A stretch of DNA of 63,923 nucleotides, counting the filler, from Craspedostauros australis (taxonomy: Eukaryota), in assembly GCA_030167865.1 (NCBI GenBank). It is 6 parts of 6 records of this genome, joined end to end, with 100 filler letters (N's around TTAATTAATTAA, not from the genome) between each part and the next. Parts side by side here need not be neighbours in the genome. Positions count along the whole stretch, not along the records: positions 35,985 to 62,150 come from JALAGF010005823.1; 5 more parts are not named here. One strand, written 5' to 3'. A program made the translations under genes and the position numbers. Below, one piece after another: positions 13,172 to 62,250 of this stretch (the first letter of the stretch is position 1; each line of letters starts with the position of its first letter). Under the pieces are notes generated by a model. It was not told the DNA's origin. It was given only the letters and a program-made list of their open reading frames with translations, and made no database searches.

Positions 13172-13234
13172 CTCGCTGAGTGGAAATGATTTCCACTTCT
13201 GCAGCAGAAGTGGAAATCATTTCCACTCAGCGAG
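13172..13234. repeat. Perfect 63-bp palindrome (31-bp arms, 1-nt loop); each arm contains the palindrome AGTGGAAATNATTTCCACT
   Basis: CTCGCTGAGTGGAAATGATTTCCACTTCTGC-A-GCAGAAGTGGAAATCATTTCCACTCAGCGAG, read directly. Confidence 0.95.
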
Positions 13235-14962: not shown

Positions 14963-14993
<31 letters not shown>

Positions 14994-24925: not shown

Positions 24926-25276
24926 GAATTACAGTTCGTCCGTTATCCAACATACATACAGTGTCCGTTATGTTGAAACACAAGTATACCATCGTTCGTT
25001 GAATGTTCTNNNNNNNNNNNNNNNNNNNNNNNNNNNNNNNNNNNNNNNNNNNNTTAATTAATTAANNNNNNNNNNNNNNNNNNNNNNNNNNNNNNNNNNN
25101 NNNNNNNNNATTTGTCGTGTTGTCTCCGTGTTATTTTTACTTGCAATTGCATGAGATCATGTCATGCCTCTCTCATGCTCACAGTTCCAAGAAGACAATC
25201 TTGTGAGCTCGACAGCATTCCNNNNNNNNNNNNNNNNNNACAGTAAACAAACACTCTCCTCACCAACAACAACGAC

Positions 25277-26786: not shown

Positions 26787-27440
26787 CTGCAAATCGTAGT
26801 AGTAGTGATTATATGTGTGAGGTACACCTGTGATTCGAATGGTTGTGTGCGCATCGTCTGCTTGATGGCATGGAGGATTGTGGTGTGGTGTGGTGTGTGA
26901 TGTTTGTTTTGTGTTTTGTGACGAGTGGTGTGAATTGTGTGACGCGGACCGTTTTTTTGTGTCGTGAATGGTGTGCGTCGTGGAGCCATCGCGTTGTGTC
27001 GTGCCGCTCTGGTCGGAAAAATTCCAGCCGAACCACACACAAAAACGCTCCAAGGCCTCAACTGCGTCGATCGGAGCGCCAGCACAATCGGTGTGTGTTG
27101 CGCAAACCAATCGAATGGCAAAGGCTCCTCTTTGTTGGTACCACACTCGTACATCTGTACCACATCGTACCATGCCAGTACTCCACTTCCTTTTCATCAC
27201 ACATGTGCAACCCTCGAGATCTTTGCTGCCATCAAGTCCACGCGTCTGTACTTGTCACTGGAGCACCAACGATGCATCCTCTGATCATTCATCTCTGCTC
27301 GTGCCCTGCCGACGGCACCGCACTAGCACGATTGTCATGTATTGGTGGAGCAGAGTAGAGTAGAGCAGATCGCAACGAATACACACCATACAATGCTCAT
27401 ATGCTATATTATGCTATGTTGTGATGTGCTAGTGCAGCTC

Positions 27441-28360
27441 CTATGATATGTTACATACTCGTACACTAAGAGCACAGTCCACTACTCCATGTACTGCTTC
27501 GGGCTTGCTAGATGGAGCAGATTGGACTTCCTCTCTTCGGGGTGCGTCGCCATTGGACGCCTCTTCGTTGATTGTCACGTCCTCCTTGCCGTCATGTCCG
27601 CATTCGTTCCGCTTGGCCTCCTGTCCTGTTTGTGTTGATCGGATGCTTTGCTCCGTCGCTGCAGAAGGGTCCATCTCTTCGCTGCCATCGTGTGTTGACG
27701 AAGACCCCATTACCTGACTGGGATCATCTTGTGATGAACATGATCGAGTCTTTGCGCTGGTCTCGTCTTGCGGAGTGGGCACCGCAGATGCAGATGCCGT
27801 CTCCGAAATGATGGTTGTTTGCGAAGACTTCTTGGTGCTGGCATCGGCTTCTTTCGTTTGTGCGTTGTCTCTTGCAAGTCCCATGGTGCTGAGAACCCCA
27901 ATGGTGGCCAACGATGCAACAGCCAAGGCCAACAGCTGTGATGAGGTGATGCCCGCCTTCTGCTGACCTTTGCTCTCCTCAGACACCACTGCGCCTTGTT
28001 TTGCCTGTGAGTTTGTGACTGTGGCCGTCGCGGATTGGGCCAGGTTGTCCACGATTCCATGGGATCCATCTTGTGGCACACAATGACATCGCCGCTCTCA
28101 CCATCGTACACCTCAAAGCTCGTGCTGTCGTAGTTCACGAGGTTGATGACTGGTGTTGCACCAGCTGGGTTGCTGGTAGACTTGTCGGCGCCAGTGCTGT
28201 GTGCTGAATCGCGTGATGCAAGGGCGTCGTCTCCGTCACCAGTCCATGGATCCTCGTACGAATGCTTCTCCTCCATGGAGTCGCTGATAACGATCACGCC
28301 ATTGGAATGACTCTGCGATGGTCGATTCTGCTGCAAGGCACGGGAAAAACGTTGAAACAC
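27441..28360 (-). pseudogene. 3' part of an S/T/A/D-rich low-complexity gene, frameshifted; probably continues 32217-34690
   Basis: Overlapping ORFs 27710-28360 and 27441-28079, with the same composition and strand as the fragment on the other side of the array-bounded element. Confidence 0.5.
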
Positions 28361-28510
28361 GACTTAGAGCGTGTTCGACCACTTCGACGATTTCCTTTGA
28401 ATCACTGAAGCGATGTTGAAGTTCGACTCAACTGATTGTTGCATTCGTTGCAGAATAACGTTTATAACGTCAATATGTTTAAAAACCGAACTCCAATGAC
28501 AACAAACTGA

Positions 28511-28706
28511 TTCAATGAAAGTAATGACGTTTCAATGAAAGTAATGACGTTTCAATGAAAGTAATGACGATTCAATGAAAGTAATGACGATTCAATGAAA
28601 GTAATAACGATTCAATGAAAGTAATGACGATTCAATGAAAGTAATGACGTTTCAATGAAAGTAATAGCGTTTCAATGAAAGTAATGACGTTTCAATGAAA
28701 GTAATG
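28511..28706 (+). repeat. 20-bp tandem array, 10 copies, TTCAATGAAAGTAAT plus 5 variable nt
   Basis: Units at 28511, 28531 ... 28691. Confidence 0.97.
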
Positions 28707-28989
28707 TCGGACCACGACTGAACGACGAAAACACGACTCACACGATTTTGTCGAAACTCGACGCCACACCAACCGTACACGATGAATCAGTTTTGTATCG
28801 TTCCAAAACAACAAGAACGTGATGTGCGCGCTGCCTGCATCACTGAATGCAGCGAACGATAACGCTGGTTATACATGTGTTCTTGGTGCAAGTACTACCA
28901 TTGCATACTTTGCACAATTGGCACATTCTCTATTTGGCATTGCTGTGACACAGCACAACCGCAAAGCCAGAGCAAGAGAGACTGCGATC

Positions 28990-31500
28990 TATTATATTAT
29001 ATTATATTATAGTATATTATATCATGTTTGTATGGTATGGCAGAGTAGCTCGCGCTAGTATGTACAAGTGCTCCACAACTATCAGTGCTGCATCAGCAGC
29101 AGTGCCATCGCTGAAGGTATGCAGAGATTTCCCATAATAAGTACTGGCCATCACTTGTGTTTGGGTATGTCTGTCGCCATCCCTCCAAACTGCCACATCT
29201 CCACCACAAGAACTGCACCAGTCTACCTATGCCTCCTGACAATCCATATAGGAGTTGATTGTTGCTTGAACCTGCGGCCGCAGTGAGACCTTGTACATGC
29301 AAGCCATGCAGATGAAGCGGAGTACACCGTTGACCTAATCACAATAATAGCTCAAGGATTATACTCAATTCACATGAGAATGCGCCAACTGCGCTTTTCT
29401 CCTCCTCCTTTCTACTCTTCCACTCACAAAGAGGGGGTACAGAATCTGGTTGCTGCATTGGTGTGGCCGGTGATGCGGTACTGAAAGTTGTGCAGGATGC
29501 AACAGCTGTTGCCATCCAGCTGGTCATCTGTTGGAGCTGACTTGAGTGCCAAAGTGCACAACCATCCATTTACATAGCCCAGTTGATACTTCAACGGTAT
29601 CACCAAGGAAAGGGGGCAGCTGTACCATCCGCACTGTCCCATCCGATGTCCGCTTGCTGTATGCGGCTGTTGATATTGGAGGGAGAGTCCTGCCAACTGC
29701 TGAGCCGTGGCACACCTCTGCTGATCTGTCTTGGCCTCCCCATGATACCAGCGGCGACCAAGGGGTGCATTTTCCAGGCCTTCATTTCTGTCCCATCTCC
29801 ACAAGAACTTCACTCCACGTGGATTGTATGAGCAGGCCTTGGCATAACCACATGTGATTTGCGTACTTGGTCTTTTTGCATGTTGGGCGCCTGTTGCTGG
29901 TCCGTACATGCCACTGTTTCATCCGTTTCCCAGACATAATCTTGCTGTAGACTTTCTTGAAGGTGGTGCATTGTTTGGATGCACTCAACCCGCGCATTGC
30001 AGCCACCATGCAACTTGTTCTTGACTGGCTTTGCGAATGAACCGGCTCCAGAGCAACCTATCCATGAATTGACAATTCCAGAGCTGCCCTGGCACGGTCT
30101 TGTATGTGATGGTAGATAGCTTTGTGTGCAATGATAGCAGGCAATACTCTCTCCATGCACTGCAGACATACAGGCAATGCTTCCTTGTATCTCCATGCAC
30201 CACTAGTGCAAACCTGCCAACATGCCCACCAATATGTTCATGTGCACCCAAGGGTCCTTGACGGGCAGCCTCTCATTGTCCTGGTGCCCTTTGCCATGCC
30301 ATCCAGTAGCTCAAGACTGCAGGTTGCAGGCAATGAAATGAGTAGTGCTCGCTAGATCGCTGTCTGCATCCTCCAGCCTGATAGTGTGCACTGGATCGAG
30401 AACCATAAGCGCTGGTGCATTGTCACAGGCAAGCTGGATGTGTCATTTGATCCCATGGACCGGTTGGCATGCTAGATCCACGCAAATATGCTGTAGATAC
30501 CAGCGAGTTCTGATTGATGCAGTTGCACCAGCTGGCTTCCTCATGGCACCTTGTTCACAAATGTGACTCTGGAGACAGGGTTCAGAAACGGTGGTTGCAT
30601 TTCTGCAGCTGGAGTGCCGATTCCATTTTGGATGACCCACCCCTGCAGGCCACGCATTTCCTGTTGCCAACACTGGTGATGAAGGCTTCCTCTCCACCAG
30701 TGGACACCATTTGTTTGGCCGACCATCATTGGCTGCGCTCGGCGCTGCGGAACAACCAGCTGATGATTGCATTCTTCCTCACTGTTGGCTCGATGCAGTT
30801 CAATATGCAGCCTGGGACCAGCTGATCCCCTTGCCAAGTTTCATGAACTGGCAGTGATGGCTTCACAAGGGTGGTGCCTGTCTGGCGATGATACATGCCT
30901 CCCCTGATCCCTCTGCTATGCGCCCAATACAATGATCTTTGACCCACTTCCCGGACCATCTGGCCATCTTCCAACAAGAGGTAGCCTGGGTGTCTGGAAA
31001 ACAGACTGTATCAGGCCCTCAGCCTAGCTTAGATGTTGTTGATCACATTGTTGGCTCCTGGCCAGGAGATGATAACCAACCACCCTAGTTTCCATTGGGA
31101 TAGCTATCACAATCCGAGCAGCGGCCATTTCAGACTCAAATGTGGTTTGGTGTGCCCTCTGGGATGTAGGACTTGCTGTCATATGGTCATTCCATCTGCA
31201 TTGAGAAGGTCTGACTTCCATATGACTTGCAGGTGCACCAGGCAATGATTGATCATAGCCTCTTGCTTCTGGGAGTATTCAAATAGGAGGATTGCATCCA
31301 TAATGAGTTGGTTGTTCTGTCTTGGCGGTTGGAGAGGGGAAGTGGAGAACTACGTACACATGTCAGCCTGTCATGTATTGTCCTTCATCAGGGTAGACAC
31401 TTTGGTTGTGTGGAGATGCTTCATTCCATTGGGTAGCACGAGCACACCTCTGTCAGCCCTGTCTCAAGCACTGTGGCTTTCACCATGGAGCAGAGAAGCA
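28990..31500 (-). mobile_element. Decayed, 5'-truncated non-LTR retrotransposon (Ambal-like diatom LINE with RNase H)
   Basis: Minus-strand fragments in the expected order: NQLIMDAI...MINHCLVHLQVIWKSDLLNADG (~31330-31180), AGWVIQNG (~30640), ACDNAPAL (~30420), GKRMKQW...RPTC...NHMWLC (~29930-29840), QADIGW...G...W (~29650). (ATTAT)n tract at ~28990-29020 is a possible tail. Boundaries approximate. Confidence 0.7.
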
Positions 31501-31964
31501 TACGATTGATGGAGTAGTAATCCGTTGCTCTAGTTCGCACATCAACCCACAGCCAAGCACCCGTCGCCCAACTCCCATCACACCATTCTGCCTCGCAGCC
31601 AAGTTCTCAAATGGGAGACGGAGAAAAAGAACCAGTCGACGCAATCAACCAAATGGCGAGGACGATCAGCCAAACATGGGTCTTTGTAGCAGCAACAATG
31701 CAAGAAGGACAAGTAGAACTCAAAATGGTAACAATACTATAGCAACAGTTGTACTATGTAAGATATAATATTATACATCTGGAACCCAGCTTCTACTGCT
31801 TGTGGTAATGTTATGGATTGTGTCACACAGTAAGGGCAAGCACTTGTTGTGTGCGTGTTTGCATCACGCGCACGATTTTTTGTGTGTGAACGGAGGTCCA
31901 AACGTGGATTCGTCCAATCGTGAATCAAAAGACTCCCACAAACATTCGATGTCAGTCGTGACGT

Positions 31965-32180
31965 TTCAATGAAAGTAATCACGATTCAATGAAAGTAATC
32001 ACGTTTCAATGAAAGTAATCGGCATTCAATGAAAGTAATCACGTTTCAATGAAAGTAATCGGCATTCAATGATAGTAATCACGATTCAATGAAAGTAATA
32101 GCGTTTCAATGAAAGTAATAGCGTTTCAATGAAAGTAATAGCATTTCAATGAAAGTAATGACGTTTCAATGAAAGTAATA
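31965..32180 (+). repeat. 20-bp tandem array, 11 copies, same unit and same orientation as 28511-28706
   Basis: Units at 31965, 31985 ... 32165. Confidence 0.97.
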
Positions 32181-32216
32181 AAATCGACGTTACCGCCTAT
32201 AACGTCTATTTAACTT

Positions 32217-34690
32217 TCATGGATTGCAACATCGGAGTTGGTCTTGGCTCATCGGTGTCGAGGAGTGTCTCGAACACGGGATTGGTGTGGCGAAGGGCGT
32301 TTGTCCGTTCTCCGGACACACTTTCAACGAATTTCCCGTGACTTGCTGGTGATCATCGTTACCCTCGTTGTCACCGGAGCAGTGGTCATCTTTGTCGTCG
32401 AGCACAATGATCTCTTCGACATTTCACGAGCGGGAGGCGCTCTCTGCTGGGGTTTTTTGCTCGATGGAATAATTCCCAGGTGACGCACCACCCTGGCTTC
32501 CGTGGTCGGTGACATCAATTGGGTCATGTTCAGCCGGAGCACCACCAACATCAGCATTGTCGCAATCCTTTTCTGCATTCATCAACAACTTGGTCATGAT
32601 CGCTGCGCCGACCCCAAGGACAACTGCTGCACCTGCGGCTACTCCAGTCGAGGCGTTCTTGGTGACATCGTCCAATGACGACTTCGCTGAGCTGATCGAC
32701 TTGTGGTATGAGTTACGCTCGATGTGACCAGTCGAAACAGTTGCTGATGCTTCTTGAGCGGCGTCGGCAACATCGTTTGTTGAGGCCGCAGACGCGTTGT
32801 TGGTGCAGCTGCTATCGACAGGATTCGAGTTGGCGCTTGCGCTCGTCACCACGCTGACTGCAGGGCTGCCATCAGCTGTGACTTTGGCTTTGGCTGTGGT
32901 TGTGGTCGTGGTTTTGGCCGCAGCTGCCACAGATGCCGCCGTAACGACTGTTGTGGCCACGCCAATAGCTGCGGTGGTTTTCAATGCGTTGGCGTTGTCG
33001 TCCTTGTTGCTGTTGTCATGTTTCCCGAAGCCGCGATCGCTCTGAGTTGTGGATGGCCTCGATTGGTCTTGGTGCCCAACCAGCACCCCAACCTTTTCCG
33101 AGCCAGAGTCCAACAGGCTGTTCAAGACGGACTCATTGAACGACGAAGGGCGTTCGTTTTCCGCAGAGCTGGAAGACAACTTCCTGGTGGAAGCTGCACC
33201 AGATCTCACCGACCGTTCATTCTCGGAGACGGTGAATTCGGAGGCTGTGGATTGACCGCTGTTCGTTCCTCGCGCAGGCATGAGAACGTCCATGCCCTGG
33301 ACGACTGGGATGTCATTGGATGAACGTACGGTTTCCACAAGGTGGCCGACTATCCCTGGGTTGGCTGCACCGGCGACTAGTTCTTGCTCTTCAGATCCCA
33401 GTTGACATGCGTCATTGCTGGCAGATTCGTCCTTGTTGCTGGTTTCGTATGAACTACCAGCAGCCAGTTTGGCTGCAGCAAGATCCATGATGTCTTCGAG
33501 AGGAGCCGGAGGAGGGCTGCTGGTCTCTGTGAGAGGTTCGATGCCTTCTCTCTGCATCTGCAAGNGAATCATTGCTGCAATCTTCGCCTCGTAGTCAGAT
33601 GATGTCGAAGAAGAGAGGTCAACGGCACGGACCTTGCCATTCTTGACACCTTCGGAACGATTTGTGTAGACATCGCTGGATGCCAGGCTGGATGTTCCAC
33701 TTGCGCTGCTCTCTGCCGACGGACGCGACTGCTTGCTGCCACCGGCGTTCTGCGTTGTTTCTGTTGCTGGTCCACCGACGGATGATGATCTGTCTCGTGT
33801 GTTGGAAGATGATGCAGCTGCTGCTGCCACGGCCGCTGCAGTGCCAATTGCGGCTGCTCCGACCACGGCCCCAGAAATGAAAATACCGTAGCTGGTGCTG
33901 CCATTGGAACGGTTGGAGCGTGACTCTCCGTTCGAGTACGTCGAATCGTCGTAGTATACCGATCCGCTTGACAANNNNNNNNNNNNNNNNNNNNNNNNNN
34001 NNNNNNNNNNNNNNNNNNNNNNNNNNNNNNNNNNNNNNNNNNNGTGGAATTGTTGCGTGCTGGACGAGTCTGATTCGTTGAAGCGGACCGACTTTTGCGA
34101 TCCTTCATCTATGACCGAAACGGCCCGCACTTCGATGTTGTCGGTCTGTTCTCCACTGTCGGTAGCTTGCGTCATGGTCACAGCTGGGGGATCGGCCTTT
34201 CGTGCCAATTTCTCGGCCTGCTGTTGATCGTTCGACTGCTGGTCGGCCTCGGACCCAGAAGACAAGGATGCGGAACGCGCTGTTTGTGCCGGTTGCCGCT
34301 TATTTGGAGCAAGCACACGGTTCGCAACGTATGCTCCCGCTGGAAGATCGATGCCTGTTGCAGAGGCTGTTGGCGACGCGATTCNNNNNNNNNNNNNNNN
34401 NNNNNNNNGTCGCTGGTTGGAGACGCGATCCGTGACGTCCATGGATGTGGTCTGACCATCATGATTGCTGTGAATGCTTCAGATGGTGCTCTTTTCGACG
34501 CCGGCACTCGCATTCTTGCTTTGTCCAATCCTGGATGGTGGTTCCTTGCGAAGCAAATTGTTGTAGAACGTTGGCATCGACTGAGAGGCAGCAATTGCAC
34601 CGAAGGCCGCCACCGCCTGCTTACCACGCATCTTTCTGACCGAAGTAGGTGCAGGGATGACAGATACCGAACCTTCCGCCTCTTCCCTGG
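32217..34690 (-). pseudogene. Large low-complexity S/A/T-rich gene with an in-frame TGA at 32424-32426; cut by an LTR at 34691 and by the array element at ~32217
   Basis: ORF 32424-34442 continues in frame into ORF 32217-32405. No recognisable domain. Confidence 0.55.
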
Positions 34691-35884
34691 TGTTGGAAAT
34701 CCGGGGTTAGGTATTAGATTAATCTGTTATCAATCTGTACCAATTTAGAACTGTGAGAACAAACTCCTTGACTCTCCAATTCCAGTTCAGCAGCAAGTGT
34801 AATCTGTAGCAGTTCACCATGATCATGCACTTGTTCATGGTTGCTTTCATCTGCTTCATCAGCTTGCTCTCATGCTCTCTTCTGCAGGTTCATCATGCAT
34901 CATCGTGGTGATTGGCATCTTCTACATTCGAGCAGCATCTCTCATAGACGCACAGGTACCTTCAGCATGGGTCTCAGTCTGATCGATCCCACTTGACCNN
35001 NNNNNNNNNNNNNNNNNNNNNNNNNNNNNNNNNNNNNNNNNNNNNNNNGTATTCCACCTGCGCCATCATCACATACTCACCGGTCATGTTCAATGCATGT
35101 CGCGTCGTCATTCGTGCTCTTGAGCGGATAGGGGCATCGCCTCCGTTTCGCTTTCTCAGAGAAGCGATCCCTTGTCCGTCGATGCGCGTCGACATGTCTG
35201 ATACATATCGACAGTTTCGCCCATAGTCTTGGTTCATGTGCGATTACATCCCTAGAGGTCGATCCATAGGTTCGCCCTCATTACAGCGGTGGTACATGGA
35301 TAGGCTCCATGGTGGGACATGANNNNNNNNNNNNNNNNNNNNNNNNNNNNNNNNNNNNNNNNNNNNNNNNNNNNNNNNNNNNNNNNNNNNNNNNNNNNNN
35401 NNNNNNGTCGAGTTGTGAAGATATTATTGGGAGGTGCGGCAATCATGGGTATCTTGGTAAAAGCGTACCCCCGATTCCTGACACCCTTCCATTGTCGCGT
35501 CGACAATATATCGTTCTTGACTCTGCTCTCTCTTACCCTTCATCACCACCATCCCACTCTCCGTTTCATTAGTCTAATGCTGACCTTGGCTGGATGATAT
35601 CGCCCTTGTGTCTGTCGTAGATCTCCTTCTTCGTGTTCTTGGTGAACCCGTCTGCGATGTTGTCNNNNNNNNNNNNNNNNNNNNNNNNNNNNNNNNNNNN
35701 NNNNNNNNNTTCTCGAATGAAGTGATGTCGTATGTCGATGTGTCTGGTTCGGGCGGATGTGGATGGGTTGGAAGCGATGAAGATTGCTCCCACGTTGTCA
35801 ACCATTACGTCTGCTGGTCTGTGCATCTCCAACCCGATGTCTCTCATCAGTTGGGTGAGGAAGCGGATCTCCTTTCCGGCCTCC
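34691..35884 (-). mobile_element. 3' end of a copia element (family B): RNase H tail, PPT and 3' LTR 34691-35483
   Basis: VDNVGAIFIA, RTRHIDIRHHFIRE and NIADGFTKN. Minus-strand PPT GGAAGGG directly before TGTCAGGAATC...GATTTCCAACA. Confidence 0.88.
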
Positions 35885-37882
35885 NNNNNNNNNNNNNNNN
35901 NNNNNNNNNNNNNNNNNNNNNNNNNNNNTTAATTAATTAANNNNNNNNNNNNNNNNNNNNNNNNNNNNNNNNNNNNNNNNNNNNCTTGGGTCTTTCTTCA
36001 TCTCTCCTGGTCTTGCCTAATCTTGATCTCTGTTTGATCACATATGGATTGATCCGTCTACGTCGACGGGGTGCATGCATCACCCCTGACGATGTTGTTC
36101 TGGATCCTAAGTATTGTTGCCACGTGCTCGATGATGCACTCGGCATGGCTAGACAGGTCAGNGTACCATGACTAANANANAATCTCGATTCCGAGGATCA
36201 CAATGACCGATCCTCTGACGTCATACGATGATGTCAGTGCCTACGTCATGTTCGATGACCGTAGTGACCAAATATCAATCGTGTATCAAGACTCACTCGA
36301 CTATACTCTCAAATCGAGTCGAATCAAAAAATAGTGAATCACGTTTCAGTCATGGGAGATGGGTACCTAATTTCGATCTAGATGTTGATACAATGCGTCT
36401 TCGAGGACTACCCCGAGGGGGATCCTCACGCGGCGTGGAACGTTCTCGCGGAGAAGTTCCGGCCATCCGACGCAGCAACAAAGATCAAACTCAAGCGTCA
36501 ATTCAACAACGAAAAGATGAAGAGAGACTCGGACCCCGACATCTACATTACGCGACTCGAGCTTTTATGCTCACGTCTCCACGATGTCGGATACACGATC
36601 AGTGAAGAAGAGATGATCATGCAGATTCTCAGCACGGTAAGCAACGAGTACAAGACTCACATCGTGAACTTCCATCACCAACTCACGTTCAATCCAGATG
36701 TAGTCACCATCAACGCAATCAGAGGAGTACTCCGAACTGCACACGCCACTCATCAAGGAGGAAAGGCGTACGTCGACGATTTCCAAGACAACACGAAGAG
36801 CAACGACACCGGCTTCACTAGCACCGGTAACTTCAAGGGGACCTGCCACAACTGTGGTATGTATGGTCATAGATCTGCGGATTGCCCCGAACGAAAGAGA
36901 GCGAACAACAAGAAAAACAACAACAAGATGAACGGAAAGCGCAACAACAAGAACAAAGGAAGCGGCTTCAACGGTAAGTGTAACTACTGTGGCATCTTCG
37001 GACACCGCGAGGCGGAGTGCCGAAAGAAGAAGTTCAACGAGAAGAAGAAGGCCGACGAGCAGGCCAACACAACAATGGAAGGACACGACAAGAGCGGCCA
37101 CGAGATGGTACTCTCAGCCAGAGACGCGCCGCTCTGCATGGAGGTGTCCAACAACTACATCGAAGACTCCTTCTTCGATAACTTCGTGTGCGTCGGAAGT
37201 GACGACGAAGTACAGGACGATGAGATCATCCCGGAGTGGCTCAACGACAAGCCAATCATCCACGAGGTGGATCCAAGACGCGAAGTGAGCTATGAATGCT
37301 GCTTCAACGCGAACGACCTGATCGGTCCATACGGTGACGGAGCTGTGATGGGCACTGAGGCCATTGACATCGAAGTCGAAGCGGCCATGAACGCAGAGGA
37401 TGCCGACGCCAACGAGAACGGCACGGATCAAGACAACAACGAGAACGTCTCCGGAGACGAGACGAACGGTGGCAACGTGCTGCCTCCTCCAGCAGCGGGG
37501 AACAACAGAACGGGCATCTTCGACGAAGATGACAGCGATGAAACAGAAGATCATCCAGACGACAGCTTCAACCCAAACGAGCGTGTCGTTTACCCGACGG
37601 ACATCGACTTCCCACCATTCCCGAATCCAAACAACCGGAATGAGCTTCATCGAATCGATACGATCCCATACGCGACAGCAACAGCGATGAGAATGCAGAA
37701 GCATCTTATCTTCGATGCCGTGTCGGCAGTGGGAATGCGAAAGTACCCAGAAATGGAAAGAGGGGTACTCAAGGCAATATGGGTGAACATGATGGGATCC
37801 ATCCTATCCGAGAACTTCAGATCAATCGAAGAGATTCCGCCAACGGGGCGATCATCAATCAGCTATTGGAAGCGGCGGATAC

Positions 37883-38415
37883 TGCCTATTGCCGGCGGAC
37901 GATTGATGTTCATATGATTGCTAATGGTAATGAATGTTGTTGTTGATGATGTAAGATCAAAATTATGATTACTTGAGCTATCTCTCTCCCTTCTGCAGTC
38001 TGCACCTCTTGTCAATCGTATTCATTCATTTCGAGATCATGTTGTTTGTGCCTTATCCCAAACCTGCGCCACTCTCTGTTTGACTTCTCGTTTTGGATGG
38101 AGGTCAGGGTTTGGATGACGATATTCATATGCAAATATTTTTACGATTGAATCTTGACCAATCATTCTTCCAATTGGAGCTTTGACTAATCAGACTTCCA
38201 GTTGGAACCTTGACTCATCCGACTTCAGTTTGAGTCTTGACTAATCTGATTTCAATTTTGATTCACGACTCGTCAGTCTTGATTGACTGTTAACACGACT
38301 CGTAGGTGTGACTGGCAATGTGATTGCTTGGGTGACTTATTGATGACTAGTATCTATTGTGCACAAGTCTAGGTCTTGTGTCATCAATAGTCTATCTAGC
38401 CAGCCGTCTAGGGCA
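37883..38415. mobile_element. 533-bp solo LTR inserted into the copia polyprotein gene
   Basis: TGCC...GGCA termini with 5-bp TSD GATAC (37878-82 and 38416-20); AT-rich interior with degenerate TTGAC repeats. Confidence 0.85.
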
Positions 38416-41400
38416 GATACGGAGACAATCCCAAAGATGGACTTGCATTATACCCTCGGAAGATGCATGCATGTGCTCCTGCGTGAGCGACCACGAGTCA
38501 CACCCTACGATTCAGTCACCGGAACTCATTTGAACAGCACGGTTCCATCGGAGTACGCGGATCCGTACGAAGATAGTGAAGACGATGAAGACATGAACGA
38601 CAACCACAATCCCTACAACGAAGATGGGATTCATGAGGACGAAGAGGACGACCACATCATGGACGACATGGCCGCAGCCGCCATGGAGCAGCTCCACAAG
38701 ATGAGCACCAAGTACAAGGACAAGGTCAACAAGGACACCTGGCTCGCCGACAGCGGAGCTTCGTGTCACATCGTCAATTCGGACGCCGCCCTTTTCAGCG
38801 TGCGGCACATCAAGTCATTCGTCCAAGTGGGAGACAGCTCGAAGCTGGACTCTCCCAAGATGGGATCCATCCGCAAAAAGGTCAAGCAAAGAGACAACAC
38901 TGGCCACATCATCCGGCTTGATGATGTGAAGTACGCACCCAAGATGGCGGTGAACCTTTTCTCTACGAACAAGGCTCTGTACAACGGCTACCAGATGGGT
39001 AGCAACGGAATTCTGATGGACATCATCAACGGATCCGGAACAAAGATCGTGTTTGATCGAGTCTTCCCCACATCCAACGGATTCATCACGGGAGTACAGA
39101 TGTATCCCATCATGCCAACCAACAACGACATGGCTTCGACAGCCATCACCAAGAATCCATCCAAGGAGGTAAGCGTGGCGAACTTCCATAGAATGCTCGG
39201 CCACGCGCCACTCGAGACCATGAAGCGGACTGCCGCTCAATACGGATGGAAAATCATTGGCGAGATGCTGGTGTGTCGCGACTGCGCGGTTGCGAACGCG
39301 AGAGTGAAAAACATCTCGAAGACCAGAATCCCGAGAGCTACTCGCCGCGGCGAGCGCTTCTTCATTGACATTAGTTACACTAAACACATAAGCTTCAGAG
39401 ATAAATGCTACTGGACCCTGATCGTGGACGACTGCATGGACTACTGCTGGAGTTTCTTTCTCAAGAACAAAAGCGACCAACCAGGATACATCAAACGATT
39501 CGTGCAGACGATCAAGTCACAGACAGGTGATCAACAGATCATCTTCCGAGGTGACAACAGCGGAGAGAACAAATCCACGCAGGATACTCTCATCGATGCA
39601 GGACTGAATGTGAAATTCGAGTTCACGGCATCCAACACGCCGCAACAGAACGGTAGAGTAGAACGCAAGTTCGCGTACCTCTACACCAAGATCCGCTCCA
39701 TGCTCAATGGAGCACAACTCGATGAAGAGTATAGGCATGGCCTGTGGGTAGCAGCTGCAAGCACTGCCACCGCCATTGCCGACATCACTGTAGCGAAGAA
39801 TCAGAAGGAGTCACCACATCGCCAATTCTTCGGCAACAATCCACCATATGCAGACACACTCGGCACATTCGGAGAGGTGGGTGTTGTGAAGACTACCTAC
39901 GGTGGGATCACCGCCAAACTCAAGAATAGAGGAGAAGAGATGGTGTTCATTGGATGTGCACACCAACACGCATCAGGGGTCTACAACATGTACAGACCAT
40001 CGACCAAATCACTGGTCTGCTCTCGCGACAACAAGTGGCTCAACCAATCATACGGACAGTTTTGTGGCTGGGCACCAGCACCAAACATATCCAACAAAAC
40101 AGGAACAACAGATGCAGAAGGTTTCACAACCATCGGATGGAAGGGAGCAACGCCAAGGACGACAACGCGTCAAGCGGCTGAGACAAGGAGAGTATCCTTT
40201 GCCGACAGGAACCAATATCATATCCTATCAGACGACGATGAGGAGGATGATGAAGATGATGGAGTAGTAACCCAACTAATCAACAACGACGAAGATCGGA
40301 GCGAATCCGACCCCGAGGATGACGAGGTCCTACCATCTGGCGACGAAGCCGACGATGACACAGGCGTCACTCCTCCGAACACACCAGCGAGGTATACACA
40401 TGACACACCATCAAGACCTCCACCAAGCAAACCAAGCAAGCGTGACATAGCTAGAAAGGAGAGAATCCGACGTCACGAAGCACGAGGCAGGAAGGGAGAA
40501 GCTAATCCCAAGCCGACTGCAGGGAAGAGTATTCCCAGAGCTCTGCGTGAGCTCGCAGACTTCAACAAACGAGGTCGAAAGGAGGAAGGTTATGAGAACG
40601 AATCATCATCCAACAAAGATAGTGACGAACTCAGCCACGAGATAACCGACGAATCCAACAACGAGGAAATCATGGACGAAGAAGAAGAGATCGAGATCAC
40701 TCACCATAGCACAACAGGACTATACGGAATGAATACAATCATCACCGAGTCACCGGCGATCGATATCGGATTGTCGATACAGGACGAGAACAAGGAACCA
40801 GGGAAGCACATCGAACCTACAACGTTCGATGGAGCTTTCAATCATCCAGATCCCATCCATCGAAAGGGATATCGAGCAGCCATCAAGAAGGAATTCGACT
40901 CCATGGATACACGCAAGGTGTACAGCAAGATCAAACGAGACGCCATCCCACGCGGCCGCAGATGCTGCAAATGTAAATGGGTCTTCAAGCTGAAACGCGA
41001 CGGCACACATCGAGCGCGGCTCGTTGCATGTGGCTATTCACAAGTCGCAGGAGTAGACTTCCAAGAGCATTACTCACCCGTCATCCAAGACGTGACCTAC
41101 AGAGTCATGATGGTGATCATGCTGATCAAGAAGATGGACTGCGCACTCGTCGATGTCGTAACGGCATTCCTACATGGAGACCTCGACGAGGAGATCTACA
41201 TGAACTGNCCCAANGGGATGGATCATCAANCAGACGAAGCCCTGACCCTACACAAGCCAATCTACGGGCTTGTGCAGAGCGCCAGGCAATGGTTCAAGAT
41301 GTTGGTATCGACCCTCAAGAACATCAACTTCGAACAGAGCGCGGCAGACCCGTGCTTGTTCTACAGGAAGACGAACGAGGGAAGTATGATCGTGGCCATT

Positions 41401-42414
41401 TACGTGGACGACTGCTTCTGCTGCGGAGACTCCAAGGCATTGGAGACATTCCTGAAGGACATCCAAGGCAGCAAATTCAAGGTAACAATCGAGCGCGGAC
41501 TTGGAGACTACCTCAGCTGCAACATTGAACTGAACCATGACAAGACTAGAGCAACATTGCGTCAACCACATCTCATCCGACATCTCATCGAAGAGTTTGG
41601 AACCAAAGTTGAGAAGATGCAACGCTATGCAACACCGGGAACCCCCGGTCAGATCATCGTACGACCATCCGAAGACAACGGACTACAGAAGGTCGGACCG
41701 GAAGATCATGCCGAATACCGCCGAGGCGTCGGCATGCTACTCTTCCTCATCAAGCACTCGCGACCGGATATCGCAAACCCTGTGAGGAGGTATTGATCGG
41801 GCCAACGAAGGCCGCAATGAAGGAGATGTATCGGATCATCAAATACGTGATCGATACAAAGGACTATGGATTGAAGATCTATCCAGCACGTCCAGACAAT
41901 GACAGCTGGGACATGGAGCTCTTCTGCAATAGCGAATATGCAGGAGACAAGAACACAAGAATCAGCGTAGGAGGGTTCATCCTATACCTGTGCAAGGTAC
42001 CAATCCTTTGGCGATCCAAGGCACAGAAGGCCGTCACACTCAGCTCATCCGAAGCAGAATACATTGCCCTTTCCGAAGCGGCAAAGGAGATCTTCTTCGT
42101 CATGCAGCTACTCGAAAGTGTGGGCGTTCCAGTGAAGACACCGATCAAGGTCCGTGTGGACAACATCGGAGCGATCTTCATCGCCANNNNNNNNNNNNNN
42201 NNNNNNNNNNNNNNNNNNNNNNNNNNNNNNNNNNNNNNNNNNNNNNNNNNNNNNNNNNNNNNNNNNNNNNNNNNNNNNNNNNNNNNNNNNNNNNNNNNNN
42301 NNNNNNNNNNNNNNNNNNNNNNNNNNNNNNNNAGGCCGACTTGCAACGTGAACATGAGAAGTCGTACCTTGACACATCGAGAACATTCGAATGACCGAAT
42401 GCACACAGGAAGGG

Positions 42415-42980
42415 TGCCGAGATATACATGTGAGTATATGTCAAGATGTACGTGTATATGTGCATCGTTCACCCGTTATTCTCTCATACGCACTTGAACG
42501 GTATAACTACATTCGTGTCGATAGTATACTGTGATTCGTCAGAATTACAGTAGAAATGGAAGACACGGAAATGAGCAGAATTTCTGGAGGAAATTTGCAA
42601 TCGACGATTTCTGAGAGAATTAGAACATCGTCCGTCCATCCATCAATGGTACCAAGAGAATCTCGAGGTACTTCCCAACTAAACCTCAGATGACGATATC
42701 ATCTGACAGTCCACTGCATCACCAATGGAACATGACATCTGGAGAGCAGAAGGACGCCTACTGACGTTGACAGGATGTCATCGTGTCACCATGTTGACAT
42801 CTGTCTCCAGGTCAGAGCAGGAGGCGAAGATCCGATGATCGAAGAGCATCAAGATCATGGATACGAGAGGTGAAGTTCAAATGGTGAGTACTCATGGAGT
42901 AGGAACCAGTAGTAAATGAACGGAGTGTCGGTGCGGAGTACGCATCGAACATGGAGTATCGTGTAGTACGAGAACACGAT

Positions 42981-43028
<48 letters not shown>

Positions 43029-43266
43029 CGAAGAGTAGCGAGAGAGGATCTCGCACACCGACTCATAGTCGGTTCATCATCAAGGAACGGAGGACGTTTC
43101 AGAGAGTCAATCTACGAAACAGATTGAAGCGCCGAGAGCATCGGGCAAGAGAACGGGCATACACCGAGAGGATCGGAGTAGCCAAGTAATGAAATAGCAA
43201 ACGAACGACTATCAACCAACACCATCTTCCACGATCGTAGGCTTCCAATCACGGAACTTGCCAACA
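42415..43266 (+). repeat. 3' LTR of family A copia (852 bp) containing a (GA)n microsatellite at ~42984-43025
   Basis: TG...CA termini, preceded by PPT; homologous copies at 8461 and 51169. Confidence 0.88.
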
Positions 43267-43601
43267 GACACTGTGGCACTGCGGACTTGGAGCAGCATCA
43301 GAAACATCATCACAGCTGCACTCATTACAGCATCAATTTGCGCACAAAAATTCGCATCAGCTCATACTGCAACACCTGGAACACCATTCGCAATCGCAGC
43401 AACGGCCACACAACAACAACAGCCAGGCAACAGCATCTCCAGCATCGTGATCACCAATGGCATTGGTACACAGGCCTTTGTACACCAGCATTCGTAGCAG
43501 TCTGTGCGACACCACCTGCAACTGCATTGGCAAAGGCAACAGTTCGACTCCAGCATCAGCATCAGCATCATCAGCAGCACCAGTGTCACGAAGAAAGCAA
43601 G

Positions 43602-44873
43602 ATGCCGTTCACATGGTCTGGTGCCAAGAAGATATTGGAGGAGGAGCTCAAGGCAGGGGCCATCACGAAAGAGATGAAGCCCAAGGAAATCTATGAAAGG
43701 CATGCTGACTTCTCCAACATGAAGTACACCAACTTCCGCAACAACTTGAATCGCCTCCGAAAAAAGTGGAAGAAGCACGAGGAAGATGCCATGGAAGCAG
43801 AGAATGCACTCATTGCTTTCCGCAAAATGGCAATTACGTCGATGCCAACAGGTGTTGGAAATCCGGGGTAGTAGTATAGTCTAATGCTTATTAAACTGTA
43901 CCGTTTTAGAACTGTGAGAACAACATCTTCATTTCTTGCTTCCTCGAAGAGATTGCTCATGATAATAGCAGTAGCTTCCTGTTGTTGCTCCTGTATTCAT
44001 CATTGCAGATCTCCTCCATTGCTCACATCTCATCGTGCATTTCAGGCGCAAATCATCATACATGTTCATGATGATTCCCTTCTACACTCGTACTGTACAT
44101 GCGTGCGGATGTCATGTTTCACTCTCTTCCGATCACACATCCGTTACCTGCTCAGTGCACTCTCCCATGTCGTTCACTCACTTTTCTCACATGTTCACCA
44201 ATGATCACCCTTTGGTCAGAACATGATGTTCTGGCACGATTGATCCAATCCTTCGATGATGTTCCGATCCGCGCTATGTTCTCCTTCGCTGGTTCTCCGC
44301 CATTCACACGATCATGTTCTGAGTTCCGAGCGACTAAGCGTTGTTAGCGCTTTCCCATAGATGTTTGGTCCACCGGTTAACTTCCGTGTTCAAGAACACT
44401 TCGGTGTTCCAGTCTCCCTTTTGCATCCATTGTTCGCCACGCCTGTCCGTTAGTCCTCACGAACACATCATGTCATTCGTCCGTCCGTTGTCCGTCATAC
44501 TCTTGACACACAGAGGAGGATGGCTCACAATCGACTTGGGAGTGAGTCCGACTTTGATAGTTCGGCTTGTCTATATTTGGTATTATGAAAGGGGCGGCAA
44601 TCTAGGATATAGCGACATAATCGCACCCTCGATTCCTGACAAACAGGCAAGCTGAAATGGGATGGTTCTGAAGCTCAGAACGCGATGAGAAGAGACTTCA
44701 AAGATGAACTCTTGAAGTCTCTTACACCCAAGCAACTATATCAAAAGCGGCCATGCTATCAGGAATTCCCTATGGAGCAATTTCGGAAGCACTTTCATGC
44801 AGCAAAACGATCGAAATACGAGTCTTTGTATTGGCAGCAACGCAGAAAGGAAAATCAGAATAGAAAGCGCTAA
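43602..44873 (+). pseudogene. 158-aa basic protein with two internal repeats (W.xA+..L/M...+PK..Y.+..F..FR), interrupted by a solo LTR
   Basis: Joining 43602-43852 to 44648-44873 gives one open frame: MPFTWSGAKKILEEELKAG...MKPKEIYERHADFSNMKYTNFRNNL...PTGKLKWDGSEAQNAMRRDFKDE...LTPKQLYQKRPCYQEFPMEQFRKHF...KR*. Confidence 0.85.
43853..44641 (-). mobile_element. 789-bp solo LTR related to family B
   Basis: Same termini as 34691-35483 (TGTTGGAAATCCGGGG...CGATTCCTGACA); flanked by AACAGG on both sides. Confidence 0.9.
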
Positions 44874-45096
44874 TATAACTATAGCAACAGTCGTCCTGTG
44901 GTGGATGTATCTCGAATCCTGCTTCTACTGGTTGTGGCACGTTTATTGATTGTGTCACATAGCATGGGCAAGAATTTGTTGTTGTGAGCACGTTTGGCAC
45001 ATGATGCGCCTGATTTCGTCGTTGCGCGAATGGAGGTTCAAACGTGGTAGGATCGGCTCATGCGTCCAGACACGAATCAAAGGACCCCAGCGAGTA

Positions 45097-45230
45097 TTCA
45101 ATGAAACTAATCCAGTTTCAATGAAACTAACCTAGTTTCAATGAATCTAACCTCGGTTCAATGAAACTAACCTCGGTTCAATGAAACTAATCCGCTTTCA
45201 ATGAAACTAGTCTACTTTCAATGAAACTAG
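45097..45230 (+). repeat. 20-bp tandem array, 7 copies, TTCAATGAAACTAR plus 6 variable nt
   Basis: Units at 45097, 45117 ... 45217. Confidence 0.95.
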
Positions 45231-45269
45231 AGATACCTAAGATAACGTATATAACGTCCGTGTAACGTT

Positions 45270-45931
45270 CCATGGATGAAGACTCCAGAGTTGGATTTGA
45301 CTTGTCCGCATCGGAGACAGTGTCGAACACGGGATGGGTGGGGCGGAGGACAGGCGTCCACTCCCCAGGCACAGTTTCAACGAATTTACCGTTCCTTGCT
45401 GATCAGCCACACCCAATAACCTCCAAAACAAATAATAAAGGGGAAGGAAGCAGCCACTTCATGGAAGGTGTTCGTTGGGTTCGACGAGGGTGGACTTTGT
45501 GAGGGTCGATCACTCGGTATAATCGAGGGTAGATCACTTGATGTATCCGGGGGTAGATCACTTGGTATATCCGAGGGCAGACCACTCGGTATATCTGAGG
45601 GTAGATCACTCGGTATATCTGTGGGTGTGAAGGTTGGATTTTGTGATGGCCGATCACTGGGGCCATTTGTGGTGGGCTGAGTACTACTGCTGCCCTCTAT
45701 GTTTCTGTTGCTGCTGTTCTCGCCACTGGGGGGGAACGCTACGCCTACTGCAATGGCACCAGCTACACCGACGACCAGGAACACCACCGTAACAACACCT
45801 TTCCAGCTCCATCCTGCCCTCCGAGAAAATGACTTAGGATTCTCATCATCTCTACCGAAGACCCCTGCAACTGCATCTGGAAGATAGATTACATTCTCTG
45901 TGTTATCATCACATGCTGTCTCTTCATCCAT
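45270..45931 (-). pseudogene. Single-pass membrane protein with Pro-Ser (PSDxPS) 12-bp repeats; degenerate 3' part abuts the array element end
   Basis: TM segment GVVTVVFLVVGVAGAIAVGVAF followed by PSDLPSDIPS repeats; the frame breaks downstream. Confidence 0.6.
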
Positions 45932-47057
45932 TGTTGGGTATGGATTTGGCTGCGGCTGCGGCTGTGTAGGTGAGTTTTGCGTCGGTCACACCAGTGACGA
46001 CGATGTGAATGGCACCTGCGCAACTTGGGCTCTCTCTCTGTTTCTCTCAAGATCGTAATTGGTGGTGGTCACGGGAATAGGTTGTTGATGTATTGTGAGG
46101 GTGAGGAAATAAGATGCTCCAAACGATTTCAGGCATGCCAACAAGATCAATGTTGGGCGAGGCAGAGAGAGAAACCTCGCTTCTCTGCAGCAACAATCTC
46201 TTGATCGCACTCATCAGTGAGGTCGTGGTGGCATTTGCACCACGTTTGTCATTTGCATCCGTGACGATGATAGTGGGCAGCTGAGGTGTCAACCATTGGT
46301 AGTGGTGCCCTTTCGTACCGTTTCGTACGCATTGGTGCTGTATCGTCCCCCATCGCACACGCTGTCCTCGTACCACGCACTCTGACACTTATCCTTCTAC
46401 TTCCACAGATGTTCTTTACTTTCACGCACACGGACCAGAACAGCCAAAGCGGTAATACTCGTCTGCTTCTTTGTTTGCATGCTATGATCGCATGCAAGGT
46501 CGCACGCTCGGAAGGCGATGGGCGGAGTGCGAACTACCAACAATACATCAAGGCAGGAGTCGTCAATGCAAACAGAGAAACAGAAGGCAAGGCAGACACA
46601 TCCGCCCCTATTATCGCTTTCTAGGTCGCACCCTCGGAAGGCTATGGGTCAAGCACGAGTAGCAGAAGAGGTCGGTCGGAAGGCAATGCCATGCGAGCAC
46701 ACACCTCTCTACTGTACACTCTAATCGTATCCACCAGCGACCCCCAAAGGCTCCTTCTGAGCGTTGCGTCGATGACCCTTCCAACATGTGCTATGCGACC
46801 ATGTCGGTGACGATGAGAACGATTTCCGAAGAAAGTGAGATGATATATTTGATTTACCGTATATCCCACCCACGACAACAAACAGTCCGACCTTCAGCCG
46901 TCTCATCGACAAAGAAACCAAACGAAAGTCACCAAATTGAGTCTCCGCAAATTGGCGCCAAACAAAACAACACATCGAAACAGACGTGCAGTCACAAGTC
47001 CGTGATTAGACCTCTCTGGACTGCTGAAGGATCGTGCGCGGATACGGCGATGCCAAC

Positions 47058-51168: not shown

Positions 51169-52650
51169 TGTCGAGATGTACATGCGTGTGCATGTCAAGA
51201 TGTACGGGCATATGTGCATAATTCCCCCGTTATTCTCTTATACATGTACGGACGGTAAAACTACATTCGTGTCAATAGTATGCTGTGATTTGTCAGAATC
51301 ACAGTGGATATGGGACACCCGAAAATGAGCAGAATTTCTGGAGGAAATTTGCAATCAACAATTTCTGAGAGAATCAGGAACATCGTCCGTCCATCCATCA
51401 ATGAACACAGTTGAGATTCAATGAGGGACAGACTACTACCGGACACGGTGTCAACCAGATGGGAGAAATTCTTGTTTTGGTGCGAAACCTTCCGACTTGA
51501 TCGACCACCAAATCTTTTCTCCTCCTTTCTCTCCTCCACTCACGAATCCATCATGACTCAAACATGACCGACCTGATTCACACCTCGCCTTGGGAACTAT
51601 ATGCTCCTCAGATCCTTTTACTACAATACACCTCGATTCCCTCCATGCTGATGACTACTGCACTACTGCCGTAGTCTTGACGCGTGTATCCAACTTGCTT
51701 CAACTCAAGTGATGGAATCCGAGGGTCAGCTCCAACCACAGCCACTGCTTCATGATCGTCACTACCAGGTGTCATGACCTACACTGCAGTGTGTCTACAT
51801 GTATGGAGAGCAAAGCACTGTAATGATCGCCTACCCCGTAGCACTGAACCAAGTACATCAGTGCAGGGTCTCGCCAAGTTGTGTGGCATCGTTTCTTCAC
51901 CCTACCAACAACATAAGCTAACACATAATTAACAGACAAGGATTAGCTACAAAGCACTCTTCTTCTCATTGTTACAGTAACAACTCTTCAATCAGTACAC
52001 CTCTCTTGAACTGCACCACATGGCTATCTTGAAGCCGGCAGATTCACAAGACATCCTCCACCAATTCGCGCCAACTATGCCCGAATCCTAACTAGGGGCA
52101 AGACTGTGTGCTACTGTGGATGATGTATGCTTTGGCAAATGGAATTGAAAGAAATGGAGATGTTGTACTCCCAGTTCCAAATATGCAATAACATGAATAG
52201 GTAACCAGAGACTACTACTAGAGACTGGGTACCCTGGATTTCCAACACACACAAGCATGAGATGATGACGACTGACATCAACACCGAAGTTGTCATCACC
52301 ACTTCGACAGCTGGCTATTTCAGAACAAGAAGGCAAAGATTCGATGACCAAGGGATCAACGAGATCTTGGAGGTGCAACATGAAGTTCAGATGAGACATT
52401 GACGAGCACACGTGAAGCAACGAATCGAGACGAGAGAGGACGATCGACTGCGTGTTGAATACGCAGTAGTACCACAAGGAAGAGAGAGAGAAACAGAGAA
52501 ACAAACGAAGACGAAACAGCGAGAGAGCATCTTGCACCGACTAATGGTCGGGTATCGAGAACTGTCAGACAACATAGTAATGAAATAGCCAGCAAACGGT
52601 AACAACACCACAGTCTACAATAGGAGTATCCGTGCGCTCACCTTGCCAAC
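51169..52650 (+). mobile_element. Family A-related solo LTR with a probable nested family B-like solo LTR (51449-52247)
   Basis: 51169-51402 matches the start of 42415; ends CTTGCCAAC. The inner segment runs TGTCA...CCCTGGATTTCCAACA (~799 bp) with degenerate flanks CACGG/CACAA. Confidence 0.7.
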
Positions 52651-61752: not shown

Positions 61753-62250
61753 CCTCAAAGAGCCGGCTGTAGCCAAACAAATTGGCGATGTTTGGCGATG
61801 TTTGGATCACAGAAACTGCTCTGTAGAATGTAGTACATTTTCTACGTAAGTCACGAACAAAAAAGGCTAAAAACAGCATCAACCAAAGTTAAACTCTCCG
61901 GACTTAGCTCGTGTGCGTGTTCCTGTACTCGTCTTTCTATTGTAGCATCGAATATAGTTTATATATACAATCCTAAAGTTTGGTGTCTGTTGCTCTCCTG
62001 CTCGGTGAGCGCTGATTTGATCTGTCAAGCACCCCCATCATTCACGGACGTTTTTGGCTTCTGGTCGGCTTGTTTTCCTGTTCTGGTTGTTCCAAACAAC
62101 TGATCCAACCATCGATGACGTCATGATGACGCAAGCATTGGAACCAGAATNNNNNNNNNNNNNNNNNNNNNNNNNNNNNNNNNNNNNNNNNNNNTTAATT
62201 AATTAANNNNNNNNNNNNNNNNNNNNNNNNNNNNNNNNNNNNNNNNNNNN

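Follow-up and report, generated by a model that had tools for sequence, protein, structure and literature searches.

Two copies of a repeated unit, here called copy A and copy B, lie in a 63,923-nucleotide stretch of DNA from the eukaryote Craspedostauros australis (NCBI GenBank assembly GCA_030167865.1; this whole stretch is called the window below), and the present analysis centres on the right arm of copy B at 44814-45401, which may belong to an inverted-repeat DNA element. The window consists of several contigs chained by N44-TTAATTAATTAA-N44 linkers, and adjacency across the linkers is artificial; the linker at 35885-35984 was read directly, and the other four (11536-11635, 17787-17886, 25010-25109 and 62151-62250) are placed from the same N44/N44 spacing. 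Copy A, which spans 4.0 kb (28333-32346), lies in contig 25110-35884 with both ends present and no gene, and copy B lies in contig 35985-62150. The sample throughout is these two copies with three ends (A-left, A-right and B-right), all within the window. Running from inside to outside, the arm is built of a conserved region of about 220 bp, a 20-bp array, a TAACGT cluster and an inverted repeat, and in copy B these parts are as follows.

44814-44877, + strand: inner limit of the homology with copy A, comprising the last ~20 codons and stop of a gene (KYESLYW and a basic tail); the copy A vestige is at 31672-31735
44878-45096, + strand: pre-array conserved region, with counterpart 31736-31964 in copy A and blocks ACTATAGCAACAGT, GCTTCTACTG.TTGTGG, GATTGTGTCACA, GGAGGTYCAAACGTGG and GAATCAAA
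45097-45236, + strand: array of 7 units at an exact 20-bp period, each unit TTCAATGAAACTAAYC plus a variable tail
45242-45269, + strand: TAACGT cluster of three direct copies, ATAACGTA, TATAACGTC and then cgtg followed by TAACGTT
45267-45401: right inverted repeat, with CATGGAT (45271-45277) near its inner edge and the outer terminal block TTTCAACGAATTTACCGTTCCTTGC at 45377-45401

The initial annotation had taken this stretch for an independent, diverged copy, on another scaffold, of the right end seen in copy A, and the comparison bears it out. Homology was assessed by self-BLASTN, by MAFFT alignment and by local alignment against 300 dinucleotide shuffles. Self-BLASTN pairs 31672-32072 with 44814-45224 (68.8% over 423 columns, E 1.9e-41) and 32045-32348 with 45097-45401 (71.5% over 305, E 1.2e-37), and the homology of 44814-45401 to 31672-32348 stands far above shuffled sequence, with z values of 27-37. 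All of the colinear motif blocks listed earlier are present in the MAFFT alignment. The pre-array regions (31736-31945 and 44878-45090; ~230 bp in A and ~220 bp in B when taken whole) score 105 against 18.0±2.5 for the shuffles, with 129/180 positions identical (z 35), and the post-array regions (32180-32350 and 45232-45403) score 95 against 16.3±2.1, with 112/153 identical. Divergence between A and B is thus about equal on the two sides of the array (72% and 73% identity), as would be expected of one unit.

The region itself had been correctly located, but its extent was drawn too narrowly, as the homology starts ~64 bp earlier, at 44814, and ends ~125 bp later, at 45401. Past CATGGAT, the two copies stay colinear for 125 bp more without an indel (96/135 identical, ungapped from 32214 and 45267), and the stretch beyond CATGGAT taken alone has 84/114 identical positions and a z of 26.6 in local alignment against dinucleotide shuffles. 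The outer limit is sharp: the shared sequence ends in ...CCGTNNCTTGC at 32346 and 45401 (32346-32350 and 45401-45403), and the flanks outside the right ends (32351-32550 and 45404-45600) are unrelated, at chance level (z -1.5). At the inner limit the gene-tail stretch is still similar (z 7.5), and upstream of 31660 and 44800 the similarity falls to chance (z 0.9). In copy A, the ~64-bp gene vestige (31672-31735) carries an in-frame stop and is followed by the conserved region. A reading of the flank past CATGGAT as coding sequence was rejected, with 10-15 mismatches at each codon position in six frames, no third-position excess and stops in several frames.

The nature of the outer part becomes apparent at the left end of copy A, where the sequence outside the array is an inverted counterpart of the right flanks. 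The parts of copy A are as follows.

28333-28454: left inverted repeat, with outer block GCAAGGCACGGGAAAAACGTTGAAA; ~31 bp shorter than the right repeat
28455-28471, + strand: left-end motif ATAACGTTTATAACGTC, in the same orientation as at the right ends
39-bp spacer between ATAACGTTTATAACGTC and the left array
28511-28710, + strand: left array of 10 units running the same way as the right array, each consisting of TTCAATGAAAGTAAT and 5 variable bases
28711-31671: interior of 2.96 kb with no long frame, no recognisable protein and no similarity to copy B
31965-32184, + strand: right array of 11 units
32186-32206, + strand: right-end hairpin, GACGTTA-ccgccta-TAACGTC, with a 7-bp stem and ending in the 9-mer TATAACGTC
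32213-32346: right inverted repeat

Gap-tolerant scoring against 500 shuffles, with direct-orientation alignment as the control, gave the reverse complement of the left flank (28330-28475) a score of 77.5 against the A-right flank (shuffles 33.4±5.5) and of 55 against the B-right flank (shuffles 31.9±5.1), with 0/500 shuffles as good in either case; the direct-orientation controls were at chance, with 245/500 and 362/500 shuffles as good. The inverted similarity between left and right is colinear over about 140-145 bp, and the limit of this similarity coincides with the end of the A-B homology, so that three boundaries fall together. The best-kept part of the inverted repeat is its outermost block (seed form CAAGNCACGGGAAANNCGTTGAAA, ending in ...TTTCAACGAATTTNCCGTNNCTTGC): the 25-bp blocks of A-left (28333-28357, GCAAGGCACGGGAAAAACGTTGAAA) and A-right (32322-32346, TTTCAACGAATTTCCCGTGACTTGC) agree in inverted orientation at 22/25 positions, and the other two end pairs, each including B-right, agree at 21/25 as read off the sequences. 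The block pattern occurs three times in the window, solely at these three ends, against 0.18 expected.

By these comparisons the unit is bounded by degenerate inverted repeats of ~140 bp, with CATGGAT internal to it, and the real terminus of copy B would be the well-kept outermost 25 bp, at 45401. The earlier proposal that the shared CATGGAT is either the terminus or a preferred target is not supported, as the homology runs 125 bp beyond it to the 25-bp block that recurs inverted at A-left. CATGGAT lies near the inner edge of the repeat, in a poorly kept stretch without a counterpart at A-left, and is present only at the two right ends; in copy A, the stretch around it resembles a degenerate form of the array core in inverted orientation. 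The accompanying remark that the left end has no such motif was right as regards CATGG itself but overlooked that the left and right flanks as a whole correspond in inverted orientation. The left spacer and post-array sequence of copy A matched the right arm only at chance level. In a comparison of alignment scores rather than a tree, the A-right and B-right repeats are closer to each other than either is to A-left, and the divergence of left from right therefore looks to predate that of A from B. Copies of one element whose two ends differ should show just this pattern, which argues against a late inverted duplication within copy A. The inverted repeats thus behave like the long-separated left and right ends of a single family.

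The arrays are placed inside the inverted repeats, and their regularity had already been described for copy B as seven copies that keep the core and the period and change the rest, a description that the counts confirm. Every one of the 25 intervals in the arrays of 7, 10 and 11 units measures exactly 20 bp. The near-palindrome TTCAATGAAA that forms the core is intact in 26/28 units overall and in 6/7 of those in copy B, and TTCAATGA is intact in 28/28, including 7/7 in B. Elsewhere the units differ between copies: the remainder of the unit reads CTAAYC... in B and AGTAAT... in A, with positions 11-15 being GTAAT in 21/21 A units and CTAAT, CTAAC, CTAGT or CTAGA in B, and the last five positions vary within each array. 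The A-left and A-right arrays are of the same variant, 87-90% identical and in the same orientation, and the B array is ~75% identical to them. The arrays consequently group as A-left with A-right against B, whereas the inverted repeats group A-right with B-right against A-left, and it appears that the arrays are homogenised within an element.

The consensus core has 0/10 differences between A and B, against about 28% of sites changed in the DNA around it; by our own arithmetic an unchanged core would then be expected at 0.72^10 ≈ 0.04, which is suggestive only as a sign of constraint. The strict 20-bp period may likewise reflect a constraint on phasing. A dimeric binder would read the array alike in either orientation, the core TTCA-A-TGAA (often extended to TTTCA-A-TGAAA) being nearly palindromic. 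The initial annotation had proposed that period, palindrome and terminal motif are constrained, and the period, the palindromic core and TAACGT are indeed kept as the spacers change.

The TAACGT motif is shared by all ends in direct orientation. Each of the three ends carries an exact copy of the 9-mer TATAACGTC on the + strand, and the window has no further site for it; the 17-mer ATAACGTATATAACGTC (45242-45258) matches the A left end at 28455-28471 directly at 16/17 positions, as had been noticed before. At A-right the 9-mer closes the hairpin (z -3.1, with 4/200 shuffles as good), and no such hairpin is kept at B-right (z -0.66) or A-left (z -0.03).

Similar arrays were seen in two other settings. 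At 26-178 the window holds a second array with the same 20-bp period and another unit, TGCATTTAATGCACTCCAAA (13-bp palindromic core), in 7.7 copies and cut by the window start; no similarity of its flank to copies A or B was seen. A scan of prokaryotic genomes for three phased cores found four loci (L001-L004) in unrelated bacterial metagenome-assembled genomes, each with 3-5 head-to-tail 20-bp repeats in an intergenic position and with the core TTTCAATGAAA; in L001 the repeats stand directly upstream of a ribosome-binding site and start codon. TAACGT is not present in any of the four, and these bacterial arrays are probably operator-like and converged on the same core.

Taken together, the stretch in copy B may be read, with a probability of roughly 0.5, as the right arm (~590 bp) of a non-autonomous or cargo-carrying inverted-repeat DNA element that is mobilised in trans, with the superfamily left unassigned. 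Copy A, having both ends and no gene, would be non-autonomous. A transposase supplied in trans would recognise the terminal 25-bp blocks, and the arrays and TAACGT clusters would serve as subterminal multi-site landing pads for a sequence-specific DNA-binding protein, probably dimeric, that reads the near-palindrome TTCA-A-TGAA. Selection would act solely on the core and the spacing, with the spacers being homogenised within an element by unequal exchange and drifting apart between elements.

Several observations weigh against this explanation. The arrays and the 9-mer TATAACGTC are direct at both ends of copy A, inside inverted flanks, which a simple mirror-image inverted-repeat transposon does not predict. 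A search around the boundaries (±~15 bp, lengths 2-11, exact) found no target-site duplication of at least 6 bp, and the only candidates for a short one were CTG (3/3) and the overlapping TGCTG (5/5), either of which could belong to the repeat; CTG also follows CTTG in copy B. No transposase, recombinase or Rep was found in or beside A or B. The shared unit takes in the last ~20 codons of a host-type gene, so gene capture or cargo is needed: such a gene would have been present in the ancestral element, or the element would have taken up its 3' end. Both right ends lie between convergent frames, which fits a duplicated intergenic module too, and the sample is two copies and three ends.

The direct orientation of the inner parts is what the main rival, an unlikely account of site-specific integration, addresses. 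In this account the mobile part runs from TATAACGTC to TATAACGTC (28463-32206 in A), circularises and is inserted by a tyrosine recombinase, in a Crypton-like manner, at the midpoint of a palindromic repeat of ~280 bp that is dispersed in the genome; the arrays would flank one core like the arm-type sites of phage attP, and the inverted flanks would be the target. A direct 9-mer and direct arrays inside inverted ends would be the outcome of a circle recombining at TATAACGTC in a palindromic target, and the exact 9-mers as sole sites in the window, the like variant of the two A arrays, the 16/17 direct match of the A-left 17-mer to B-right and the lack of a long target-site duplication all agree with this. 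However, copies A and B hold no recombinase gene that could be found, no empty palindromic site is present in the window, and a reading of the bases directly beside the 9-mer shows none of the inverted core-site pairs that a tyrosine recombinase would be expected to use. The account further needs two element families with two independent insertions, or a composite movement that returns to the trans-mobilised element, and it gains nothing from the equal divergence of the inner and outer parts between A and B. A rolling-circle element with an HUH Rep, of the Replitron or Helitron kind, would also make TATAACGTC a direct terminal repeat, with the arrays as Rep-binding iterons, the hairpin at the right end and the shared ~135-bp right flank carried by read-through from a parental copy. 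Replitrons do have short direct terminal repeats, a right-end hairpin and parental flank carry-over (PMC10288648), and the 7-bp-stem hairpin at A-right ends exactly in the 9-mer. This is nevertheless very improbable, as no Rep gene was found in A or B, the hairpin is kept at neither of the other ends, and read-through leaves the inverted flank at A-left unexplained; in addition, Replitrons were reportedly not detected in diatoms or oomycetes (PMC10288648).

An explanation without mobility is unlikely as well. It takes the unit as a host intergenic module, consisting of the 3' region of a helical-repeat gene and a phased binding-site array of regulatory, insulator or origin-like function, that was segmentally duplicated and rearranged in copy A. 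The beginning of the unit falls within the conserved C-terminus of a gene that in B is intact and typical of its family, and of which A keeps a stop-containing vestige, and the position between convergent reading frames and the finding of only two copies would suit such a module; the matches to the gene family are on short contigs, one of them diatom-named, and would presumably be expressed host genes. This module would not explain why the flanks beyond the unit are unrelated, why the A-B homology boundary is also the boundary of the left-right inverted similarity, or why the A-left repeat is farther from A-right than B-right is, which speaks against a late inverted duplication inside A. Quite improbable, finally, is an undescribed stramenopile element whose circular or single-strand intermediate is resolved at the TAACGT core and not by DDE cut-and-paste; the arrays would then be the arms of a recombination or origin site, and the helical-repeat protein of B, whose family is unnamed and seen only in diatom-type sequences, would be an iteron-binding partner spread by the element.

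On present evidence, the unit is most likely an ordinary, unclassified non-autonomous inverted-repeat element with unusually regular subterminal arrays. In practical terms, the corrected anatomy places the boundaries at the inverted repeats (28333, 32346 and 45401) and not at CATGGAT, and the 25-bp terminal block together with the TTCAATGAAA array at 20-bp period could be used as seeds for a family-wide search or for repeat annotation. The arrays may also serve as a clear natural case of a binding site whose core and phasing are held by selection as the spacers turn over. Should the direct-inside-inverted layout be general across copies, it would point to a transposition chemistry that is uncatalogued for stramenopiles.

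In the interior of copy A the longest frame has 164 codons, and no homologues of this 164-aa frame were found; among 22 interior frames of at least 60 aa, Pfam gave no significant match. In copy B, a host-type gene stands directly on the inner side of the right arm.

43602-44873, + strand: gene adjoining copy B, with exon 1 at 43602-43868, intron at 43869-44636 and exon 2 at ~44637-44873

This gene is intact and encodes two copies of a helical domain, W..S.AK..L..D...G....P..Y....F...Y.NFR.NL..LR, and its C-terminus (…FRKHFHAAKRSKYESLYW with a basic tail) is family-typical, with the A-B homology starting inside it. Exhaustive HMMER searching gave 139 cluster representatives at E <=1e-3 and 11 at E <=1e-10, small proteins with 2-3 repeats, and a profile search of the family returned 44 unnamed or 'hypothetical' proteins, one labelled Ditylum brightwellii; the matches lie on short contigs, and a single-sequence word search for family names found nothing. 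The Ditylum label, the only name among them, makes a diatom or a relative the probable host. The gene has no Pfam family, and its ESM Atlas scores are all below 0.8. An AlphaFold2 model is confident and all helical (pLDDT 91.6), with 0 matches for the model in the PDB by Foldseek and nothing below E 0.27 for the family profile against PDB sequences. One family member from the profile search, P0171, carries SAP domains (PF02037, PF18953), which are DNA-binding modules, and this gives a weak hint that the family acts on DNA. With 141 proteins as tblastn queries (138/139 family representatives, the two exon translations of the B gene and the non-family TPR protein P0132), the sole match in the window was B's own locus, and no paralogue was found in A.

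The window as a whole looks eukaryotic, with copia-type retroelements (RVT_2, gag) and a PIF/Harbinger transposase in it. The left part of B lies outside the window: 336 bp upstream of the gene come a repeat resembling a long terminal repeat (LTR) and a copia element, and with these the contig runs out. This LTR-like repeat of ~1.1 kb is present in three places (42418-43266; 8461-9607, reverse; 51170-52551) that are 84-96% identical; the copy at 42418-43266, which directly follows a copia pol frame (38347-42494), probably separates B from its left part. The intron of the B gene (768 bp, 43869-44636) is a dispersed repeat that takes in the last 19 nt of exon 1. Its ends recur colinearly ~795 bp apart on another contig, at 34689-34762 and 35422-35483 (83% over 76 and 74% over 62), and its start recurs partly at 52149-52248 on the reverse strand; it looks like an introner-type insertion that is spliced out. 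On the outer side, a 199-codon frame (45389-45985, - strand) enters the last 13 nt of the inverted repeat of B from the outside flank and encodes a predicted membrane-spanning stretch and a 24-bp coding repeat (8 residues, IPSDLPSD-like; 45500-45626). The insertion of B may have replaced the C-terminus of this frame.

A reading of the arm as structured RNA was also considered and found no support. Rfam gave no match at E ≤ 1 in 28000-32600 and a single match in 43000-45700, at 20.5 against a gathering score of 54 bits, with none in the pre-array region; no tRNA was found. In consensus folds, the pairs changed on both sides numbered 0/38 in the pre-array region and 5/39 in the flank, the latter from only two sequences.

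Comparison with known systems shows partial likenesses in several directions. With the iterons of plasmid and viral origins, the arrays have in common seven to eleven phased direct repeats of ~20 bp with a conserved core and variable spacers; they differ in their eukaryotic chromosomal context and in the lack of an initiator gene, and the likeness is one of sequence alone. Foldback elements and miniature inverted-repeat transposable elements with arrays similarly combine long inverted ends with short-period tandem arrays. The arrays of foldback elements belong to the inverted ends and hence are themselves inverted; here, in contrast, they are direct, with a 3-kb unique interior between them. 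A DIRS assignment was rejected, as the terminal block occurs only at the three ends, with no internal copy of joined ends, and no reverse transcriptase or recombinase was found in the A interior. Of the Replitron features described above (PMC10288648), copy A shows a short direct repeat near each end and the right-end hairpin, but no Rep HUH (Y1) gene was found, the hairpin is not conserved, the flank at A-left is inverted, and the A-B homology runs ~140 bp beyond the direct TATAACGTC.

The initial annotation had compared CATGGAT with the ends of CryptonS elements, transposons of oomycetes and a diatom that are described as having 5-6-bp terminal direct repeats, mostly TATGG, and a tyrosine recombinase; the same paper describes the original fungal Cryptons as having no terminal inverted repeats (PMC3212892). 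A presumed stramenopile host, short direct repeats near both ends and the lack of a long target-site duplication are points of agreement. The analogy fails in that CATGGAT is internal here, 125 bp inside the homology limit, and absent at A-left, that the direct repeat is instead TATAACGTC, and that the inverted repeats are long; since neither a recombinase domain in A or B nor TATGG-type repeats at a boundary were found, a Crypton assignment is not supported.

The remaining comparison is with inverted-repeat transposons that carry subterminal motifs, namely CACTA/En-Spm, Ac/Ds-type hAT and Mutator-like elements (MULEs). The terminal inverted repeats of such transposons are present at both ends of copy A (22/25; 0/500 shuffles); the DDE transposase of their autonomous members was not seen, by Pfam, in the A frames or the B gene. 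The arrays of A also differ from subterminal motifs of this kind in being strict head-to-tail 20-bp tandems with the same orientation at both ends. As to individual superfamilies, the ends are not CACTA; the 8-bp target-site duplication of hAT is not seen (the 8 bp before 28334 and after 32345 agree at 1/8), nor is the 9-10-bp duplication of MULEs, with no 9-bp one present, although the repeat length is compatible. The 3-bp duplication of PIF/Harbinger elements is possible, as CTG, and ambiguous. A resident Harbinger (13068-17291) was rejected as the autonomous partner, its terminal repeats being unrelated to the A and B ends. That copy has terminal inverted repeats (C)AWTAGAGGAGTTTCGCATT, 95% over 20, a DDE_Tnp_4 frame at 15696-17027 (-) and, at 13583-15274 (+), a 564-aa frame to which Pfam assigns no family, and it holds a perfect 31-nt palindrome (13172-13234) built from the motif GAGTGGAAAT, which is also present in its terminal repeats.

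A diatom MULE is described as 3.7 kb long with ~200-bp terminal inverted repeats and 9-bp duplications (bioRxiv 10.1101/2023.01.02.522487); it is similar in size to copy A, and its 9-bp duplication has no equivalent here. In general construction, the unit resembles this whole group of transposons: its inverted ends are best kept in the outermost ~25 bp, short motifs are repeated many times next to them on the inner side, the interior takes in gene fragments or cargo, and copies share only the terminal few hundred bp. Subterminal repeated motifs are carried by CACTA and hAT elements alike.

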